Shown here in pieces: positions 2,385 through 16,892 of a stretch of DNA of 28,540 nt. The DNA comes from a virus. Its lineage: Duplodnaviria > Caudoviricetes. The notes beneath the pieces are model-generated. The model was given only the letters and a program-made list of their open reading frames with translations, did no database searches and was not told the DNA's origin. A program made the position numbers and the translations under genes. The DNA lies in the IMG/VR virus record IMGVR_UViG_3300032332_002270, positions 1-28,540 of that record; one strand, given 5' to 3'. How positions within the stretch are numbered: the first letter of the stretch is position 1; each line of letters starts with the position of its first letter.

Positions 2385-3359
2385 ATGCGTGTTCTAATCA
2401 CGGGTCACAAGGGTTTTATCGCGAGGAATCTTCCCGCTGCATTCGAGCGTCTTGGACACGAGGTCGTCCCACCAAATGTGCTCAACCTCCTGCACAAGAT
2501 TCAAACCGGTGAGCACTGCGTCCATCGTAACAGTGAGGAGGCGTGGCACGCTGAGTTTGAGCGGCTCCAAGTAGATGTCGTCGTCCATAACGCTGCGACC
2601 GTTGGAACTGATGTCGTGGCACTTAATCCTCACGAGGCGACCCTGACCAACGTGACCGGGACGTACAACATCTGCCGGGCTGCCTCAAAGTCGGGCGCTG
2701 CTGTCCTCTACCTCGGAACGACGGTCATCTACGACACGGACAAATACCAGGAACAACCCATCGTCGAGACTTCATCTCATGCTCCTCGGACGTTCTATGG
2801 TGCCCAGAAGTTGGCTGGTGAGCACATCGTTCGAACCCATTCGAAGCGGTGGGCAACTGCACGTCCGCTCTTCTGTTACGGCGGCGTGGGTGATAATAAC
2901 TCACTCATCTCGAAGACACTGTTTGGTGCTGCGACCGGTCGCGAGAACATCGACATCTTCCTCGACCCGGAGAAGGTGAAGGATTATATGCACGTCACCG
3001 ACTTCTGCGATGCTGTCGCGACCGTGGCCCACCAAGGCCTCTGGAATGATGATTGGAACGTCTCAGCTGAAACTCCTCACCAGACGGGACACATCGTTGA
3101 CATGATGTCCGAGGTGTCTGGTCATCGTCTTGACCCCGTCGTCAGGTGGCACCCACAGACGGATTACCTGGGCAATCACAGGCTTAGTTCACAGAAGTTC
3201 CGAGCCGCATCGGGTTGGGCACCAAAAGTCAGCCTCGTTGAAGGCATCCAGCGTTCCTGGGATGAGATCTCCAAATCGAGCAATGATTTCAACCCACTTC
3301 AGTACCTCGATGACGCTGCATCACGCGGCCTTGAGTTGACGCAGTTCTTCAATCGCTGA
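2385..3359 (+). CDS. NAD-dependent sugar epimerase/dehydratase (extended SDR)
   Basis: VLITGHKGFIA Rossmann motif, HNAA, NVTGT, YGAQK (YxxxK), KDYMHVTD. Confidence 0.9.
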   Translation: MRVLITGHKGFIARNLPAAFERLGHEVVPPNVLNLLHKIQTGEHCVHRNSEEAWHAEFERLQVDVVVHNAATVGTDVVALNPHEATLTNVTGTYNICRAASKSGAAVLYLGTTVIYDTDKYQEQPIVETSSHAPRTFYGAQKLAGEHIVRTHSKRWATARPLFCYGGVGDNNSLISKTLFGAATGRENIDIFLDPEKVKDYMHVTDFCDAVATVAHQGLWNDDWNVSAETPHQTGHIVDMMSEVSGHRLDPVVRWHPQTDYLGNHRLSSQKFRAASGWAPKVSLVEGIQRSWDEISKSSNDFNPLQYLDDAASRGLELTQFFNR

Positions 3360-3391
3360 TAAGATAGAACAAAATAAAACAACCCCGGCGT

Positions 3392-3420
3392 CGTGCGAGA
3401 CCCCAGCTGTGTGGTATAAT
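3392..3420 (+). promoter_or_regulatory. Putative promoter CGTGCG-N17-TATAAT
   Basis: CGTGCG 3392-3397, TGGTATAAT 3412-3420, upstream of endonuclease and dnaE. Confidence 0.6.
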
Positions 3421-3475
3421 CGACATGTAATAAACCGGTGTGTGAATCACCCCTATATAGTAATAGGAGGACAAC

Positions 3476-4387
3476 ATGCCCACACTGGTTACAATTAATT
3501 GTGTCGTTTGCTGTAATGAATTTGTTACTACATTTAAAAAGCGCAATCAACAAACATGTAGCAAAGATTGCGCATATAAGCTTCGAATCTCAACAAGACA
3601 GACACAACACGAACCTACTAGAAAAAGATGCGCTAGTTGTAATCAAGAATTTGATGATACAAGCAAGAAGAAGTTAGTTAAAAAATGCGAAATCTGCATT
3701 CTAAAAGATGGAGTTGCTAAAAGAAGAGAAAAAGGCACATATGCGCGCTCTCCAGAGCAAAACCATAAGTTGAGTGAGACGCTCAAAGAAAAATATTCAT
3801 CGGGCTGGAATCCAAACACATTTGAACATAAAGAAAAATTGTCACGCTTGCTGAAGGCACGATGGAAATCAGGGTCGATGTCGGAATCAATAAAGAAAAC
3901 GTGTCAAGAAAAATATGGAACCGACCACTGGACGAAATCAACAGTTGGCAAGAAAACTTTAAGTGCTTTGTCAAAAGGACGTAAATTTTCTGATCTTGCA
4001 AGACGAAACATGTCTGCTGCACATGCACGAAGTATTCTTGCAGGCAGAAAATGCTACACAAGTGGTAAGGGTGGCGTAAGAAGTGATATTGGTTTTTATG
4101 TTCGCAGTAGGTGGGAAGCCAACTTTGCAAGAATATGCATTTATGAAAAATGGCAGTTTAAATATGAACCTTGCTCTTTCGACTTGGGAAATCATAAATT
4201 TTACATTCCCGATTTCGTAATTGGAGATGAGCTCTATGAACTGAAAGGTTACATGAGCGATGAATCTAGGACAAGGTTAGATGACTTCAAAAAAATATAC
4301 CCAAATATTGCATTGAAAATCATCGGCCCCAAAGAATATAATCAACTAAAGACAAAGTACAAACAACTAATCAACTGGGAAGAATAA
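3476..4387 (+). CDS. Free-standing putative homing endonuclease: Zn-ribbons, NUMOD3-like repeats, C-terminal PD-(D/E)xK nuclease
   Basis: AGGAGG RBS. CxxC pairs (CVVC, CSKDC, CASC, CEIC); repeats SPEQNHKLSETLK / TFEHKEKLSRLLK / SDLARRNMSAAH; RSRWEANFA...YEP...YIPDF...ELKGY nuclease motif. Visibly more AT-rich than its flanks. Confidence 0.8.
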   Translation: MPTLVTINCVVCCNEFVTTFKKRNQQTCSKDCAYKLRISTRQTQHEPTRKRCASCNQEFDDTSKKKLVKKCEICILKDGVAKRREKGTYARSPEQNHKLSETLKEKYSSGWNPNTFEHKEKLSRLLKARWKSGSMSESIKKTCQEKYGTDHWTKSTVGKKTLSALSKGRKFSDLARRNMSAAHARSILAGRKCYTSGKGGVRSDIGFYVRSRWEANFARICIYEKWQFKYEPCSFDLGNHKFYIPDFVIGDELYELKGYMSDESRTRLDDFKKIYPNIALKIIGPKEYNQLKTKYKQLINWEE

Positions 4388-4388
4388 C

Positions 4389-4469
4389 ATGTCGAACGGG
4401 AGCTCTGAGAAGCCGGTTCGTGCGCCTAACCGATTTGTCGGTTTGCATGCGCACTCCGGCTTCTCCTAA
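4389..4469 (+). CDS. dnaE: N-terminal 26-aa segment of DNA polymerase III alpha (PHP motif LHAHSGFS), ending at TAA
   Basis: Manual translation from ATG 4389: MSNGSSEKPVRAPNRFVGLHAHSGFS*. This is the canonical DnaE start motif, in a different frame from the 4480 ORF. Confidence 0.8.
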   Translation: MSNGSSEKPVRAPNRFVGLHAHSGFS

Positions 4470-4479
4470 GTAATCTACT

Positions 4480-7400
4480 ATGGACGGTTTGGGCTATCCT
4501 GCCCAACACATTGACTGGATTGTCAAGAATGGAATGGACAGCTGGGCGCTGACTGACCACGGCAATGGATCAGGTCTCGCTCACGCGCAGTCACACGCCA
4601 AGAAATTGAAGAAGTCGGGTCAGAAGTTCCGCCAGCTTAATGGTGTTGAATTCTATTTCGTCCCATCGCTTCGTGACTGGTCACATCAATATCGTGACCA
4701 CCTCGACGCTGTCAAAGCAGCGCGTTCTGAGAAGAAGGCGAAAGAGGCTACCGACATCGACGCTGATGACGAAGGTGAGGGTGGCCACGTTATCGAGAAT
4801 GAGGATGAGACGAAGCGCGCTCAGACAGCTGAGGTTAAGGATGATGAATGGAAGCGCCGTTATCACCTTGTCGTCATCGCCAAAAATCAGAAGGGCCTCT
4901 CCAACCTCTTCACTTTGGTGACACGTTCTTTCAAGGAGGGCTATTACAGGTTCCCACGCATTGACTTTGATATGCTCAAAGAGCACGGTGAGGGTCTCGT
5001 AGTCAGCACAGCTTGCATCGGCGGAATTTATTCAAACAGGATTCTCCGCGGTCAGGCAATGGGTAAATCTGACGCCGACGTCCAACGTGAGCTGCTCAAC
5101 CTGACTGACTGCTTTGTCGATGCTGTCGGGCGCGACAACTTTAACCTTGAGATCCAGTTCAACAAACTGCAAGCGCAGCACGACGTCAATCGACACCTGA
5201 TGATGCTCGCCAAGGCGCACAACCTCAATGTCGTCGCAACCTGTGACTCTCACTACCCGACTCCTGACAAATGGAAAACACGCGAGCTCTATAAGAAGCT
5301 GGCGTGGATGAATGCAAAGGACGCGCCCAAGCCGCTTCCGTCGTTTGAAGAGCTGAAGTGTGAGCTCTATCCCAAGAACGCCGACCAGATGTGGGCTGAG
5401 TATCTTCGGCATAAGCCTGAGCACAGCTTTTACAACGATGACGAGATGATTGTCAACGCCATCGAGCGGACGCACGACATCGCTTGGCAGCAGTGTGAGG
5501 ACGTCTGGGTTGATACGAAAGTGAAGTTACCTATTCACTCATTTGCTGATGAGACACCATTCCAGCATCTTGTCAATCTTGCTAAAGAAAGGCTCATTGC
5601 AGAGGGTTTATCTGACAATTCTGTCTACATTGAACGCCTGAAGGAAGAGTTGTCAGATATTAAGCATCTCGGCCACGAGTCGTATTTTCTCACGATGTAT
5701 GAAGTGTTTAAGAGCGCAGAAAAGAAAACTCTGCTTGGGCCGGGCCGCGGCAGCGCCGCTGGAAGTTTGCTCAACTTTCTTTTGGGAATCACACAGGTAG
5801 ATCCAATTCCCTATGGCTTGCTGTGGGGCAGATTCCTGGGCCGGTGGCGTGTTTCATATCCAGACATTGATACAGACGCTGCCGACCGCGATGTTCTTAT
5901 TAACTCTGCTAGAGAGCTTTACGGGAATGATGCTGTCATTCCCGTGTCAAACTTCAATACGCTAAAGCTCAAATCTCTCATCAAGGATATTTCCAAGTTC
6001 TACAACGTCCCTTTTGAAGAAGTAAATGCGATGACTGGCCCTCTTCAGAATGAAGTTGAACCTCACGCGCGTGACGAAGATCAAGAGAAATCGGTTTTCG
6101 TTCTAAAGCACGATGACTGTATGAAGTATTCTGAAAGCTATCGCAGCTTTATGGAGAAATACCCAGATGTTGCTGAACACGTTAATGCACTCTTTATGGA
6201 GAATCGTTCCATTGGCCGCCATGCGGGTGGTGTTCTGATTGCAAATCCGAGAGATCTTGAGCAATCGATGCCAATCATTTCTGTTCGAGGAGAGATTCAG
6301 ACGCCCTGGACAGAAGGAATGAACTTTCGCAACCTCGAAGACAATGGTTTCCTCAAGTTCGATTTCCTCGGTCTTACCCTGCTGAAGGACGTCGAAAATT
6401 GTATTGCAAGAATCTTAAAGAAGAAGGGCAATCTTAATCCCACTTTCGCTGATGTGAAGCAATTTTTTGATGAAAATGTAAATTGTCGTTATCATAAACT
6501 TGATGACAAAAAGGTGTTTGACCACGTCTATCACAGTCGTCACAAGACTGGAGTGTTTCAATTCACCAACGAAGGTGCTAGAAAGCTTTGTGAAGAAGCG
6601 AAACCCTCGTCGATTGAAGAGGTTTCTGCTATCACTGCAATCTATCGACCCGGTCCGCTTAAGGCGAATGTTCACAAGAAGTATATTCAAGCGAGAGAAG
6701 ATTTTAACAATGGAAGAATGAAATTTGAGCACCCAATAATCGAAGAGATTCTTGGTCCCACAGCGGGTTTCTTGATTTATCAAGAGCAGTTTATGGAGTT
6801 GGCCCGTCGACTTGGTGGCTTTACGAATGCTGAATCCGACCAGCTTCGAAAGACGCTTGTAAAAAAATCTCTTGACACTCTTGGCAAAAAGAGTTCCGAG
6901 AAGGAGCAGGCTAAGCAGAAGTTTATTGAGGGGGCACAGCTCCTTCACGGTTTGAATCCGAAAATCACCGAGCCGCTCTGGCAGACAATTGACTTTATGT
7001 CTGTGTATTGCTTCAATAAGTCACACTCTGTGTCATACGCGATTGACTCCTATTATGCGGCTTGGTTCCACACCCACTATGAGAAGGAATGGCTTGCAAC
7101 TATCCTGCAATCTGAGACAGGGAAGCCTGATGCTCTTGCTAAGGCGATTTCCGAAATCAAAGCGATTGGTTACAAGTTCGCACAGGTTGACATCAACTAC
7201 TCAGGTACTGAATGGCTCTTCTCGGAAGAACTCCAGGCATTCGTCCCGCCGCTGACGTCTGTCAAAGGCTTGGGTGATGCTGCAGTTACCGAGATCTTTG
7301 AGCATCGTCCCTATCGTGAGCTCGATGACCTCTTCTACGACACCGAGGGCGAATGGCGTCACTCCAAGATGAACAAGAGCTGCTTTGAGTCGCTTATCAA

Positions 7401-7983
7401 GGTTGAAGGTTTCGGTTCTCTAAAGGAGTTCTCGACAGGTGAGCTCCGGAACCACAAGCAGCTCTATGAGTTCGTCATCAATGGCTACGACACCCTTCGC
7501 AAGGGCCGCGGCGGAATGAACAAGACAGCAGCAAAGAAGTTTGCCAAGGAGCATGGTCGAGCACCTAATGTTATCCGTGATGTTCTACCATCACTCATTG
7601 AGGTTCAAGATTGGACGCGTCCTGAGAAGATTGGACACGCTGTTGAGATTCTATCGACTGCACCTGAACTTCTGCTTTTCCCACCCCAGATTATTGAGAA
7701 GATAAACAAGAGCCAAGTCGATTCTCTTGTCGGCCTTGAACCTGGTCGACCTGGCATCGGTTGGTTCTGTACAACTGCTGTTCAGAAAAAGACGACAAAG
7801 ACGGGTAAAACGTTCCACTTGTTTGATATACTTGACGACAAGAACCAGACAGCACGCCTCCGTGTCTGGGGTCAATTCAAGCGTGACCCGCAACCTTACA
7901 CGCTCTGGATTGCTGAAGCCGAGAAAGATCCAAACTGGGGCCTTTCAACCCAGGCGTCAAAACTTCGAATGTTTGAGGTTTAA
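4480..7983 (+). CDS. dnaE: DNA polymerase III alpha subunit (DnaE), main body
   Basis: DG...ALTDHG, GVEFY, HLVVIAKN, STACIGG, TCDSHY, GPGRGSAAGSL, PDIDTD, GRHAGG, KFDFLGL, YRPGP, IYQEQ, FNKSHS, C-terminal OB-like region. Confidence 0.95.
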   Translation: MDGLGYPAQHIDWIVKNGMDSWALTDHGNGSGLAHAQSHAKKLKKSGQKFRQLNGVEFYFVPSLRDWSHQYRDHLDAVKAARSEKKAKEATDIDADDEGEGGHVIENEDETKRAQTAEVKDDEWKRRYHLVVIAKNQKGLSNLFTLVTRSFKEGYYRFPRIDFDMLKEHGEGLVVSTACIGGIYSNRILRGQAMGKSDADVQRELLNLTDCFVDAVGRDNFNLEIQFNKLQAQHDVNRHLMMLAKAHNLNVVATCDSHYPTPDKWKTRELYKKLAWMNAKDAPKPLPSFEELKCELYPKNADQMWAEYLRHKPEHSFYNDDEMIVNAIERTHDIAWQQCEDVWVDTKVKLPIHSFADETPFQHLVNLAKERLIAEGLSDNSVYIERLKEELSDIKHLGHESYFLTMYEVFKSAEKKTLLGPGRGSAAGSLLNFLLGITQVDPIPYGLLWGRFLGRWRVSYPDIDTDAADRDVLINSARELYGNDAVIPVSNFNTLKLKSLIKDISKFYNVPFEEVNAMTGPLQNEVEPHARDEDQEKSVFVLKHDDCMKYSESYRSFMEKYPDVAEHVNALFMENRSIGRHAGGVLIANPRDLEQSMPIISVRGEIQTPWTEGMNFRNLEDNGFLKFDFLGLTLLKDVENCIARILKKKGNLNPTFADVKQFFDENVNCRYHKLDDKKVFDHVYHSRHKTGVFQFTNEGARKLCEEAKPSSIEEVSAITAIYRPGPLKANVHKKYIQAREDFNNGRMKFEHPIIEEILGPTAGFLIYQEQFMELARRLGGFTNAESDQLRKTLVKKSLDTLGKKSSEKEQAKQKFIEGAQLLHGLNPKITEPLWQTIDFMSVYCFNKSHSVSYAIDSYYAAWFHTHYEKEWLATILQSETGKPDALAKAISEIKAIGYKFAQVDINYSGTEWLFSEELQAFVPPLTSVKGLGDAAVTEIFEHRPYRELDDLFYDTEGEWRHSKMNKSCFESLIKVEGFGSLKEFSTGELRNHKQLYEFVINGYDTLRKGRGGMNKTAAKKFAKEHGRAPNVIRDVLPSLIEVQDWTRPEKIGHAVEILSTAPELLLFPPQIIEKINKSQVDSLVGLEPGRPGIGWFCTTAVQKKTTKTGKTFHLFDILDDKNQTARLRVWGQFKRDPQPYTLWIAEAEKDPNWGLSTQASKLRMFEV

Positions 7984-14864: not shown

Positions 14865-16892
14865 ATGCAAGTTGTCGTCAAGAAGAGCGTGCTTGAGCAG
14901 ATGCTCAATCAGCTTGTCGAGGAGAGGAGCTTTCATTCACGTCGATACGACCAGATTGCAGGCGATGACAAGCCTGTCCTACCCGACGCGCAGGTCGCAT
15001 CCCAGCTATCTGCATCAACTGTGCCGCTGGGAGATCCCGACTTCTTACCTGTCAATAAGCAACAGCTCTCTTCTGCTGCGTCACAGATGGCACAGCAGGT
15101 CTCTCCTGATAAGATCCAGAAGTTCTACAGCGGACTCAAGAAGCTCATTCGTAAGACAGGCGAGAAGAAGCAGTACAAGGGAATGAGTGACACGGATCTG
15201 ATGGAAGAAGTCCGCCGTGCTGTTAAAAGCATCTTGGCTGAATCTGAAGACGAAGAAGAAGATCCATTCTCCGGTGACGCTAACAGAGAGATTAGCAATC
15301 TAACAGGATACAAAGAAAAAAGTCCTGGCGTCAAGAGGAACGTTGGACGTACATCAGTCGGGCCAAAAGGTGATGACTTTAATCCGCAGTCACGCGACGC
15401 CGTGAAAGATTTATTGCGCACCGCCGGCGAAGGCGGTGAAACAGCTGTTAGTGCAGCCAACACCCGTCAGCTTATGGGAATTCGGGCGGGTCAAGGTTAC
15501 GCTTTTGAAAAGACGCCCCCAGAATCGGATGACTCCCCTGCAACAAGCGTCTTTGATGTCAATAGACGACCTAGGCGCCGGCCGATTACAATAGAAGATC
15601 ATCTAATCGGTGTAGTTAATAATGTTCTTGACAGTATTAAGAAGAAATCGTTAGAAAAAGATGCAAGTGCGCCAGTTGTCTATCCCCGCAATGTAGCAGC
15701 TGGAGCAATTGAAATCGATATAAAAGAAGGCGAATACAAAAAAGAAAGAAGACTCGATAAAGAACGGGCAGATAAGCTTACAGATATAACAATTACAATC
15801 TCATCTAAAAAGCCGGATTTAATGAAACCTGCCGTTATATCGATTGTAGGTGATAAAGAAGCAGGCACACCTTTCGCCACAAGCACGGGAGCGCCATATA
15901 CTTGGGATCAATACAAAAAAGCTTTTTCAAAGCTGTACGCAGAACAAGCTTTTATCCGGAACAATTATCCATCTTCAAAAAAAGACGATCAAAAATTTGA
16001 TGATATGCCAGATGATGCCGATAACGATATCGGCACTGAGTCTGATGGTAATGCACGGCCCTCTCTAGACACACTTGATAATAAAGACAGGAATCTCGGC
16101 GGAGATTTTGCAGCAATGCTTGGATCAAGAACAGGCAAAGGGTCACCTGGCGATGTTCTTGATCCAAGAAAAGTAGTAATGAATAATTCAATAAACCAAT
16201 TAATGTATAGCACATTTATTTATTCACCTGTGAGAACAGCTGCAAGAGGCAAAGGGATTTTTAAAGGAATTAATGAACTATTCCCCGAATCCTTTTCAGA
16301 ATTTTGTAAAAAAAATCCCGATGCCATCGAAGCTGTCAATGATTTATTTGATAGTTTTATAAAATTATATCTAAAATCTTCTAATTTTGAAAATGACTTT
16401 TTTGAATTTAAAGAACTTCGTGACACCAGCCCTAATGAATTTCAACATGTTAAATCGATTACAGCGACAGAGCATCGACTCGGTATTAGAGATACAAATT
16501 CAGTTTTTAGATTTGTATTAGGATTTAATCTTGTGAGCGAAGAAGTCCGTGGAAGATGTATAGATTATGTCAAAAAGCTAATTGAAGGGGATACGCCCGA
16601 TGATGAATACTTGTCTTCTAAGCTTGAAAAGCAGCTGAGCTCTGAATTAACTACTAAGGGTCGTAACAAGAACACTCTAAAGTCAGGAACAGGATCTGTA
16701 GAAGAAGGCATAGAATACTTAACTGGCATCGATGGTTACCTCCAACGGTACTTCCAGCCTGGCACTGAAAACGATTCCCCCAACAGTGTCCTCTACATGT
16801 CACTTGCAGGATTTTTTGATGATATAAAATCTAATCCTGCTGTTACTAAAAAGATAACAAAATTTATTACAACATTATCCAGCTTAAAATAA
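14865..16892 (+). CDS. Large hypothetical protein, probable late/virion protein with AT-rich variable C-terminal part
   Basis: 675 aa ORF, upstream GATATTTAA motif, LVEE/ILAE motifs. Confidence 0.8.
   Translation: MQVVVKKSVLEQMLNQLVEERSFHSRRYDQIAGDDKPVLPDAQVASQLSASTVPLGDPDFLPVNKQQLSSAASQMAQQVSPDKIQKFYSGLKKLIRKTGEKKQYKGMSDTDLMEEVRRAVKSILAESEDEEEDPFSGDANREISNLTGYKEKSPGVKRNVGRTSVGPKGDDFNPQSRDAVKDLLRTAGEGGETAVSAANTRQLMGIRAGQGYAFEKTPPESDDSPATSVFDVNRRPRRRPITIEDHLIGVVNNVLDSIKKKSLEKDASAPVVYPRNVAAGAIEIDIKEGEYKKERRLDKERADKLTDITITISSKKPDLMKPAVISIVGDKEAGTPFATSTGAPYTWDQYKKAFSKLYAEQAFIRNNYPSSKKDDQKFDDMPDDADNDIGTESDGNARPSLDTLDNKDRNLGGDFAAMLGSRTGKGSPGDVLDPRKVVMNNSINQLMYSTFIYSPVRTAARGKGIFKGINELFPESFSEFCKKNPDAIEAVNDLFDSFIKLYLKSSNFENDFFEFKELRDTSPNEFQHVKSITATEHRLGIRDTNSVFRFVLGFNLVSEEVRGRCIDYVKKLIEGDTPDDEYLSSKLEKQLSSELTTKGRNKNTLKSGTGSVEEGIEYLTGIDGYLQRYFQPGTENDSPNSVLYMSLAGFFDDIKSNPAVTKKITKFITTLSSLK

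Follow-up and report, generated by a model that had tools for sequence, protein, structure and literature searches.

At the level of sequence, the DNA polymerase gene dnaE of an uncultured phage is interrupted near its 5' end by a short coding gap that opens with a stop codon and belongs to a family of such gaps at one site in related phages. The gene lies in a 28.5-kb virus fragment (IMG/VR record IMGVR_UViG_3300032332_002270, 28,540 nucleotides (nt); the whole stretch is called the window below). The gaps end on a triplet matched to the codon before them, are preceded by a hairpin with covarying arms and a Shine-Dalgarno (SD)-like motif, and are optional and patchy among relatives. Ribosomes probably pass over the stop-led gap by programmed bypassing. 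Together with the hairpin and an upstream nuclease gene, the gap likely makes up a single mobile homing cassette. The parts of dnaE in the window, with open reading frames (ORFs) numbered from the 5' end, are:

4389-4469, plus strand: dnaE ORF1, 26 codons with an element-specific N-terminal extension, the HxH motif of the PHP domain and the take-off Ser codon, then a stop
4464-4466, plus strand: predicted take-off codon, Ser TCC (TCN in every gap allele, the 21 found without sequence patterns included)
4467-4476, plus strand: coding gap of 10 nt, with the in-frame stop TAA at 4467-4469, a second stop in the +1 frame at 4471-4473 and the predicted landing triplet TCT at 4474-4476
4477-7983, plus strand: dnaE ORF2 from the resume codon, comprising what remains of the PHP domain together with the core of DNA polymerase III alpha (Pfam PHP, DNA_pol3_alpha, finger and HHH_6; phrog_405)

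The first-pass annotation had described a 26-codon frame from ATG 4389 that ends in HAHSGFS, a TAA directly after TCC and a polymerase resuming in the +1 frame, and re-reading of the sequence agreed with it throughout. The dnaE frame at 4474-7983 comprises 1169 codons and lies +1 relative to ORF1. An assembly slip was ruled out by ungapped contigs from two samples that span 3200-5400 and carry the insert; this check covers assembled contigs of one study rather than raw reads. The contig from run X1 (depth 8) is possibly the source of the record itself, while that from run X2 comes from another sample, has a depth of 171 and differs by eight substitutions elsewhere. Nor is the gap a chance event, because 95 distinct related alleles share it at the same site.

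A family of gaps at one site

Related loci were collected in three ways. A search anchored on dnaE gave 18 loci, 17 of which were parsed; two of these are gapped and 15 are contiguous at the site. A search anchored on the nuclease kept 80 of 444 loci, including 29 with a parsed dnaE 5' end directly downstream, and the gap is present in 21 of the 29. A stop opens all 21 of these gaps (7 TAA, 11 TAG, 3 TGA), a set free of pattern bias. Pattern scans added 155 loci, 136 with a dnaE match; the other 19 were left out. The patterns required T-T-Y-T-C-N-T-R-R and a downstream DG, so that the take-off codon, stop and DG are selected in this set; the selection extends neither to the landing triplet nor to any of the sequence upstream. 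Three rows were dropped: L057 (a distant dnaE with a spurious parse) and L015 and L160 (unparsed; 3-nt in-frame sense insert).

The merged set holds 95 distinct gap alleles, all interrupted at the site described by the first-pass annotation, and 30 gapless alleles. There are 53 types of take-off codon and gap, 5-16 nt long and in all three frames, always at the same Ser codon of the PHP motif; 33 of them are 9 or 10 nt. TGG is found at the gap start in none of the 53 types, although the TRR of the patterns permitted it. The Ser codon is AGY in 14 of the 30 gapless alleles. Gapless relatives are contiguous at this site and the conserved protein is restored only if the block is skipped, as is expected of programmed bypassing; a slow codon in the A site, also expected, is present as the stop that starts every gap of the unbiased set. 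On a tree of 90 leaves the gap switches between present and absent 13 times, compared with a minimum of 16 and a mean of 21 in shuffles. Sister alleles may differ in frame (8 vs 9 nt, 6 vs 5 nt).

A scan for cellular copies, made with one pattern against genome_contigs, returned six matches, none in dnaE. In Gordonia phage LilyPad the motif is contiguous. Among cultured phages, the best dnaE match has less than 30% identity and nuclease matches are only partial. No account of a bypass gap in phage dnaE was found in the literature searched, mostly outside subscription journals, and preprint supplements might hold further cases; the words 'dnaE' and 'polymerase' do not occur in the available part of a preprint on bypassing (10.1101/2022.08.31.505936).

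Take-off and landing triplets

The geometry of take-off codon, stop and landing triplet proposed by the first-pass annotation is strongly backed by the gap family. With wobble scored by class, the final gap triplet fits the take-off codon in 53 of 53 types, 23 of them with three matching positions and 30 with two. The description as 10 nt with a synonymous landing codon holds for the window (TCC/TCT) but not for the family, where the length varies and the landing triplet is a near-cognate, non-Ser one in 22 of the 53 types.

The third base carries a separate signal. In the 19 types mismatched at landing position 1 (A or G), the third-base class tracks the take-off codon without exception (6 purine, 13 pyrimidine; Fisher p 4e-5, for types that are not independent). 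On the dnaE tree each class turns up in several separate clades, and between sister clades the take-off and landing bases change together (L132/L134 vs L144/L147/L149). Gap interiors are poor in C (4 of 182 nt), and earlier landing triplets are therefore rare, an NCN triplet occurring ahead of the last one in only three of the 53 types. Earlier landing triplets are likewise rare in homologues of T4 gene 60 (10.1101/2022.08.31.505936).

Hairpin and Shine-Dalgarno-like motif

The RNA signals are located 5' of the gap:

4398-4402, plus strand: internal SD-like motif immediately 5' of where the hairpin begins, not followed by a start codon
4407-4465, plus strand: long hairpin of three stacked helices, the outer one formed by 4407-4416 and 4456-4465, so that its last pairs take in the TC of the take-off codon

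The first-pass annotation had instead noted a weak hairpin across the gap. It folds at -4.7 kcal/mol in the window (z-score -0.02 against shuffles) and no significant counterpart was seen in the four relatives folded. A hairpin over the gap was rejected as stimulatory RNA, being no better than shuffles in five of five folds.

The hairpin at 4407-4465 has a z-score of -5.32, and none of 200 shuffles was as stable. The best helix at this position averages 10.7 pairs in the 95 gap alleles vs 7.0 in the 30 gapless ones, and a stability of -20 kcal/mol or better is reached by 48 of 50 gapped representatives vs 4 of 30 gapless alleles. When 26 of the 50 representatives, mostly those sharing one arm spacing, were aligned, five of nine outer pairs showed compensatory changes. 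The covariation score is 0.364 vs 0.203 in shuffles, a value that none of 500 shuffles and no slid register reaches, for a structure that was derived from the same sequences and a score that relatedness inflates. In L037, a Phe-to-Arg change is matched by the 5' arm. Unusual hairpin geometry was observed in L164 and L240 (5-nt gap) and in L106 (8-nt gap); short hops may need less drive, or these loci may be recombinants. Two small hairpins follow the landing site in the window, but the folds of 13 representatives vary here and no claim is made for a conserved 3' barrier.

The tail of 16S ribosomal RNA (rRNA) is the pairing partner of SD sequences. Pairing with it at -5 kcal/mol or better was found in 48 of 48 representatives and in 16% of 2042 control windows, and GGAG in 43 of the 48 and 87 of the 2042; L164 and L106, where the hairpin base could not be placed, are omitted from these counts. 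GGAG is spread over the three reading frames (16/14/13), and ATG, GTG or TTG stands at the helix base in only five of 48. The effective spacing from motif to landing triplet is 11 nt in the window and 7-13 nt in 32 of 43 representatives. L170 and L037 retain an ATG at the hairpin base behind the motif in addition to an upstream ATG, and are possible intermediates in the origin of the device.

The joined polymerase

All 50 representatives retain the two His codons of HxH, which vary between CAT and CAC, and also the Asp-Gly after the gap with synonymous variation, the DG being partly selected by the patterns. Positions 2-10 of the Pfam PHP model fall 5' of the stop in relatives. Each of five gap-bearing phage records has a single PHP gene, and two of these records are complete with terminal repeats. 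By motif reading rather than alignment, we take three of the nine PHP ligands to be the two His of HxH plus the Asp that follows the gap, the other six apparently being in ORF2. In DnaE1 of Mycobacterium tuberculosis the PHP site has nine ligands, the D23N protein is without exonuclease activity, and ligand mutants lose activity and stability (PMC5636811).

In some relatives dnaE is broken again downstream by other inserted ORFs: in L020 (reverse strand, ORFs 2582-4237, 4268-5179 and 5115-6623) and also in L007, L034, L045 and L049. Some of the pieces end or start with what we take to be intein-like motifs, and they resemble fractured split-intein genes that have reportedly been described.

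Nuclease gene and mobility

Two features lie upstream of the dnaE start:

3476-4387, plus strand: free-standing predicted nuclease gene of 303 residues, with N-terminal CxxC repeats, a helical middle and a C-terminal PD-(D/E)xK-like domain; putative homing endonuclease
4377-4382, plus strand: run of purines within the final codons of the nuclease gene, a likely ribosome-binding site for the dnaE start

The product matches a PHROGs endonuclease (E-value 1.2e-9) and its homologues match PF05367; P245, D246, E255 and K257 are invariant. The structure model has a predicted local distance difference test (pLDDT) score of 92.7, and its top Foldseek rows are T7 endonuclease I and TnsA, both weak (E-value about 0.08). 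Neither Pfam nor PHROGs gave a match to the HNH family. As first described, the gene ends 1 nt before ATG 4389 and is AT-rich (GC 37% vs 48% for dnaE).

The nuclease is an optional gene at a fixed site, absent there in close relatives. Among the 30 full-length or nearly full-length homologues listed first (L022-L050, L052), dnaE follows directly in 29, and a contig end intervenes in L043. Comparison of L021 with L005 shows about 1 kb extra between the same epimerase gene and dnaE; homology ends at -1039/-59 and restarts at -33 relative to the take-off codon, and the cassette therefore replaces the 5' end of the gene. In comparisons of the window, L021, L165 and L212 with one another, the 78 nt ahead of the gap are identical at 72-78 positions, as against 122-146 matches over the 180 dnaE bases that follow. 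Between L021 and L165 the 78 nt are identical and 146 of the following 180 bases match, which would fit either recent transfer or strong constraint. Of the 95 gap alleles, 43 have an intact nuclease gene and 15 a partial one (8 of which reach the end of the sequence); 11 retain only a short C-terminal remnant, and no nuclease was detected in the other 26, of which 6 have little upstream DNA. These counts come from sets partly chosen by the nuclease. A dnaE ribosome-binding site inside the 3' end of the nuclease gene may explain why C-terminal remnants persist.

L040 and L044 have near-identical dnaE proteins and related nucleases, with gap and hairpin only in L040 and an ordinary start in L044, and are a candidate reversion pair. 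In L006 this site is taken by a different AT-rich gene (2214-2915), the start of which looks GIY-YIG-like. The dnaE behind it is gapless, with 5' codons that are recoded compared with those of L005, and the inserted gene is possibly a second homing element that uses sequence change in place of a gap.

A strong sigma-70-type promoter match (11/12) was observed at 4313-4342 on the plus strand, in the 3' end of the nuclease gene and directed toward dnaE, in a region with four such sites vs 2.3 expected; it could allow dnaE to be transcribed separately from the nuclease. Upstream of the nuclease, an extended -10-like sequence was seen by eye at 3410-3420 (plus strand), following a GC-rich inverted repeat at 3381-3402.

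Proposed mechanism and alternatives

Programmed bypassing in the window would proceed as follows. The ribosome would stall while TCC is paired with peptidyl-tRNA-Ser and the A site holds the stop. The inner helices would form on mRNA outside the ribosome and zip to 4465, which would draw some 10 bases through and detach the anticodon from its codon. With zipping done, the hairpin base would stand some 8 bases from the P site on the 5' side, and the SD-like motif, looped out, would reach the 16S tail at its effective spacing of 11 nt. The same tRNA would re-pair on TCT and decoding would resume at ACT, so that the HxH strand and the Asp of the PHP metal site would again be part of one chain. 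During co-infection, the nuclease would cut gapless dnaE in the conserved motif and the cassette would be copied, the gap destroying its own target. A more specific proposal, to which we give a little less than an even chance, is a minimal machine independent of the host: a hairpin with the take-off codon in its 3' arm winches the ribosome by the length of the exit path, a looped-in former ribosome-binding site catches it, near-cognate landing suffices, and selfish nucleases use the module to break essential motifs. Another role for the SD-like motif would be to restrain the next ribosome on the mRNA and thereby allow the hairpin to fold.

Several observations weigh against parts of this account. 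The driver structure in T4 ends 26 nt 5' of the landing site (10.1101/2024.12.09.627546), compared with about 8 nt here. Two of the 50 representatives (L164, L106) lack the normal hairpin. The 22 types with non-Ser landing are looser than gene 60 homologues, which differ at most at the wobble base (10.1101/2022.08.31.505936). Spacing from SD-like motif to hairpin tends to increase as the gap gets longer (rho 0.43, n 43), and effective spacing ranges over 7-22 nt; the positive correlation argues against a rigid ruler of SD motif, hairpin and landing site, which would predict a negative one, and we rejected that model. The SD-like motif sits in the region where gapless genes start (ATG at -57 in L001, L002 and L005) and, because of this shared position, probably descends from an old ribosome-binding site; its retention across all frames argues for a new role. 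Finally, against a strict pairing, eight of the 29 nuclease-anchored loci are gapless, and 20 of the 95 gap alleles have no nuclease trace despite enough upstream DNA, so that protection by the gap is no more than a candidate role. On the nuclease tree two of the gapless loci are nested among gap-bearing ones and four form one clade, a distribution that suggests secondary loss or other protection. The link between gap and mobile nuclease drawn by the first-pass annotation is strongly backed by comparison, but co-occurrence is only partial in both directions; we lean slightly toward the gap itself protecting from this nuclease.

An improbable alternative is a micro-intron, in which a hairpin-reading nuclease of host or phage and a ligase would remove the gap from the mRNA. 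The hairpin does end exactly on TC, and removal from there to base 2 of the landing triplet restores a Ser codon in 53 of 53 types. Such removal leaves unexplained why three stop types, and never TGG, stand at a fixed register, and why third bases covary by tRNA class. Rfam gave no match at gathering score in 3200-4800, and RtcB is absent from all five gap-bearing phage records, host ligases and other ligase families not having been searched. Group I, group II and other structured introns were rejected on the same Rfam result and on an insert of only 5-16 nt.

Equally improbable is a split gene, with release of a 26-residue peptide, a second protein started from the hairpin-bridged SD motif, and non-covalent assembly of the two. 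Hairpin-bridged binding sites with effective spacings of 5 and 11 nt are known (PMC3014915), and the window has an in-frame ATG at 4480. That ATG is 17 nt in effective spacing from the SD motif, however, and ATG, GTG or TTG is present in frame before the conserved DG in only six of 50 representatives and absent in 44. The covariation of landing and take-off triplets also indicates a Ser tRNA and not the initiator.

Ordinary readthrough of in-frame gaps with +1/-1 frameshifting at the others, giving a protein with a few extra residues, is very improbable. It would be compatible with the 25 of 53 types that are in frame and the 21 of 28 out-of-frame types that are stop-free in the downstream frame. 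The window (where a +1 or -2 shift runs into the second stop) and six other out-of-frame types nevertheless meet a second stop, seven in-frame types have two in-frame stops, and the frame switches between sister alleles would need three mechanisms on one RNA structure. As improbable is a dead or dispensable N-terminal piece, the polymerase working without PHP strand 1 or the phage using the host enzyme: the polymerase core is entirely in ORF2, but the His pair and Asp-Gly are conserved as described, the gapped gene is the sole PHP gene in two complete genomes, and metal-ligand mutants of the M. tuberculosis protein lose exonuclease activity and stability (PMC5636811).

Other features of the window

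Other genes in the window encode a sigma factor, GroEL, GreA and proteins of nucleotide metabolism. A 675-residue ORF at 14865-16892 (plus strand) has no Pfam match above cut-off and no PHROGs match. No tRNA genes were found in the window; four of five larger relatives encode tRNAs.

Significance and comparison with known systems

To our knowledge, programmed bypassing has been established only for T4 gene 60, the byps of yeast mitochondria and, in a reporter, phage Hau3. Ribosome hopping is a very rare way of reading a gene, and its predicted use here would have arisen independently, in a replicative polymerase found in many uncultured large phages. Gene callers cut these polymerases short and lose two predicted metal ligands. 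The 25 in-frame types would be natural in-frame stop-hops, of which the available part of a 2016 review knows none (PMC5009743). If the minimal machine were real, the 53 natural gap types would be a ruler for the geometry of the exit channel and the rules of P-site pairing. Events at the exit site have been named arguably the main unsolved problem of bypassing, and the driver stem-loop model of gene 60 invokes continuous pairing of exiting mRNA (10.1101/2024.12.09.627546). The RNA design here is far simpler than that of gene 60, with one continuous hairpin, a defined end base and gaps of 5-16 nt behind it, and the question of forward drive would be directly testable.

Among shorter hops, a 10-nt bypass in the terminase of Streptomyces phage Hau3 was shown by mass spectrometry in Escherichia coli when a slow codon was changed to UAA (PMC10732093). 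It resembles the dnaE gap in its length and short hop and in the internal SD sequence and RNA structure proposed as signals. Unlike the dnaE gap, its natural trigger is a rare UUA codon with a proposed regulatory role, it was found in 3 of 100 genes rather than a large family, and the available text mentions no nuclease (PMC10732093). The byps of Magnusiomyces mitochondria are also mobile inserts of variable length, skipped in translation with a loose match of take-off and landing; they differ in their length of 27-55 nt, an unused sense codon, mitochondrial ribosomes and presence in many genes, and no linked nuclease is mentioned in the part of the source available (10.1101/2022.08.31.505936). 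In T4 genes 25 and 38 a hairpin likewise brings a distant SD sequence near the P site (5 and 11 nt; the 11 nt in the window equals the value of gene 25), but those genes initiate at AUG, whereas no start codon follows here and the motif would be a landing aid for an elongating ribosome (PMC3014915).

The closest precedent is bypassing of T4 gene 60 with the homing endonuclease MobA (10.1101/2022.08.31.505936). In both systems a stop directly follows the take-off codon, the landing triplet can be read by the same tRNA, the element supplies an N-terminal extension and a homologous stretch, and a free-standing endonuclease lies upstream, often decayed while the gap persists (10.1101/2022.08.31.505936). 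RNA structure on the 5' side as forward driver and an SD-like landing aid are proposed for both (10.1101/2024.12.09.627546). The T4 gap of about 50 nt lies at Gly46/Asp45 of the large topoisomerase subunit, rather than at the PHP-motif Ser of dnaE with 5-16 nt, and the T4 element splits its gene into two subunits, whereas insertion here replaces the 5' end. MobA is an HNH enzyme and the predicted nuclease next to dnaE is PD-(D/E)xK-like. The T4 gap holds an A-site stem-loop with the take-off codon in its 5' arm; no such structure was found in the dnaE gap, where the take-off codon lies within the 3' arm of a single 59-nt hairpin. A strong SD-like motif stands 5' of this hairpin, in contrast to a mini-SD inside the T4 gap, and landing mismatches at the first or second position are common. 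We therefore propose that the dnaE system works like T4 gene 60/MobA and yet is a new variant of programmed bypassing, because the gene and site, the HNH nuclease and the take-off stem-loop that define the T4 system are not those found here.

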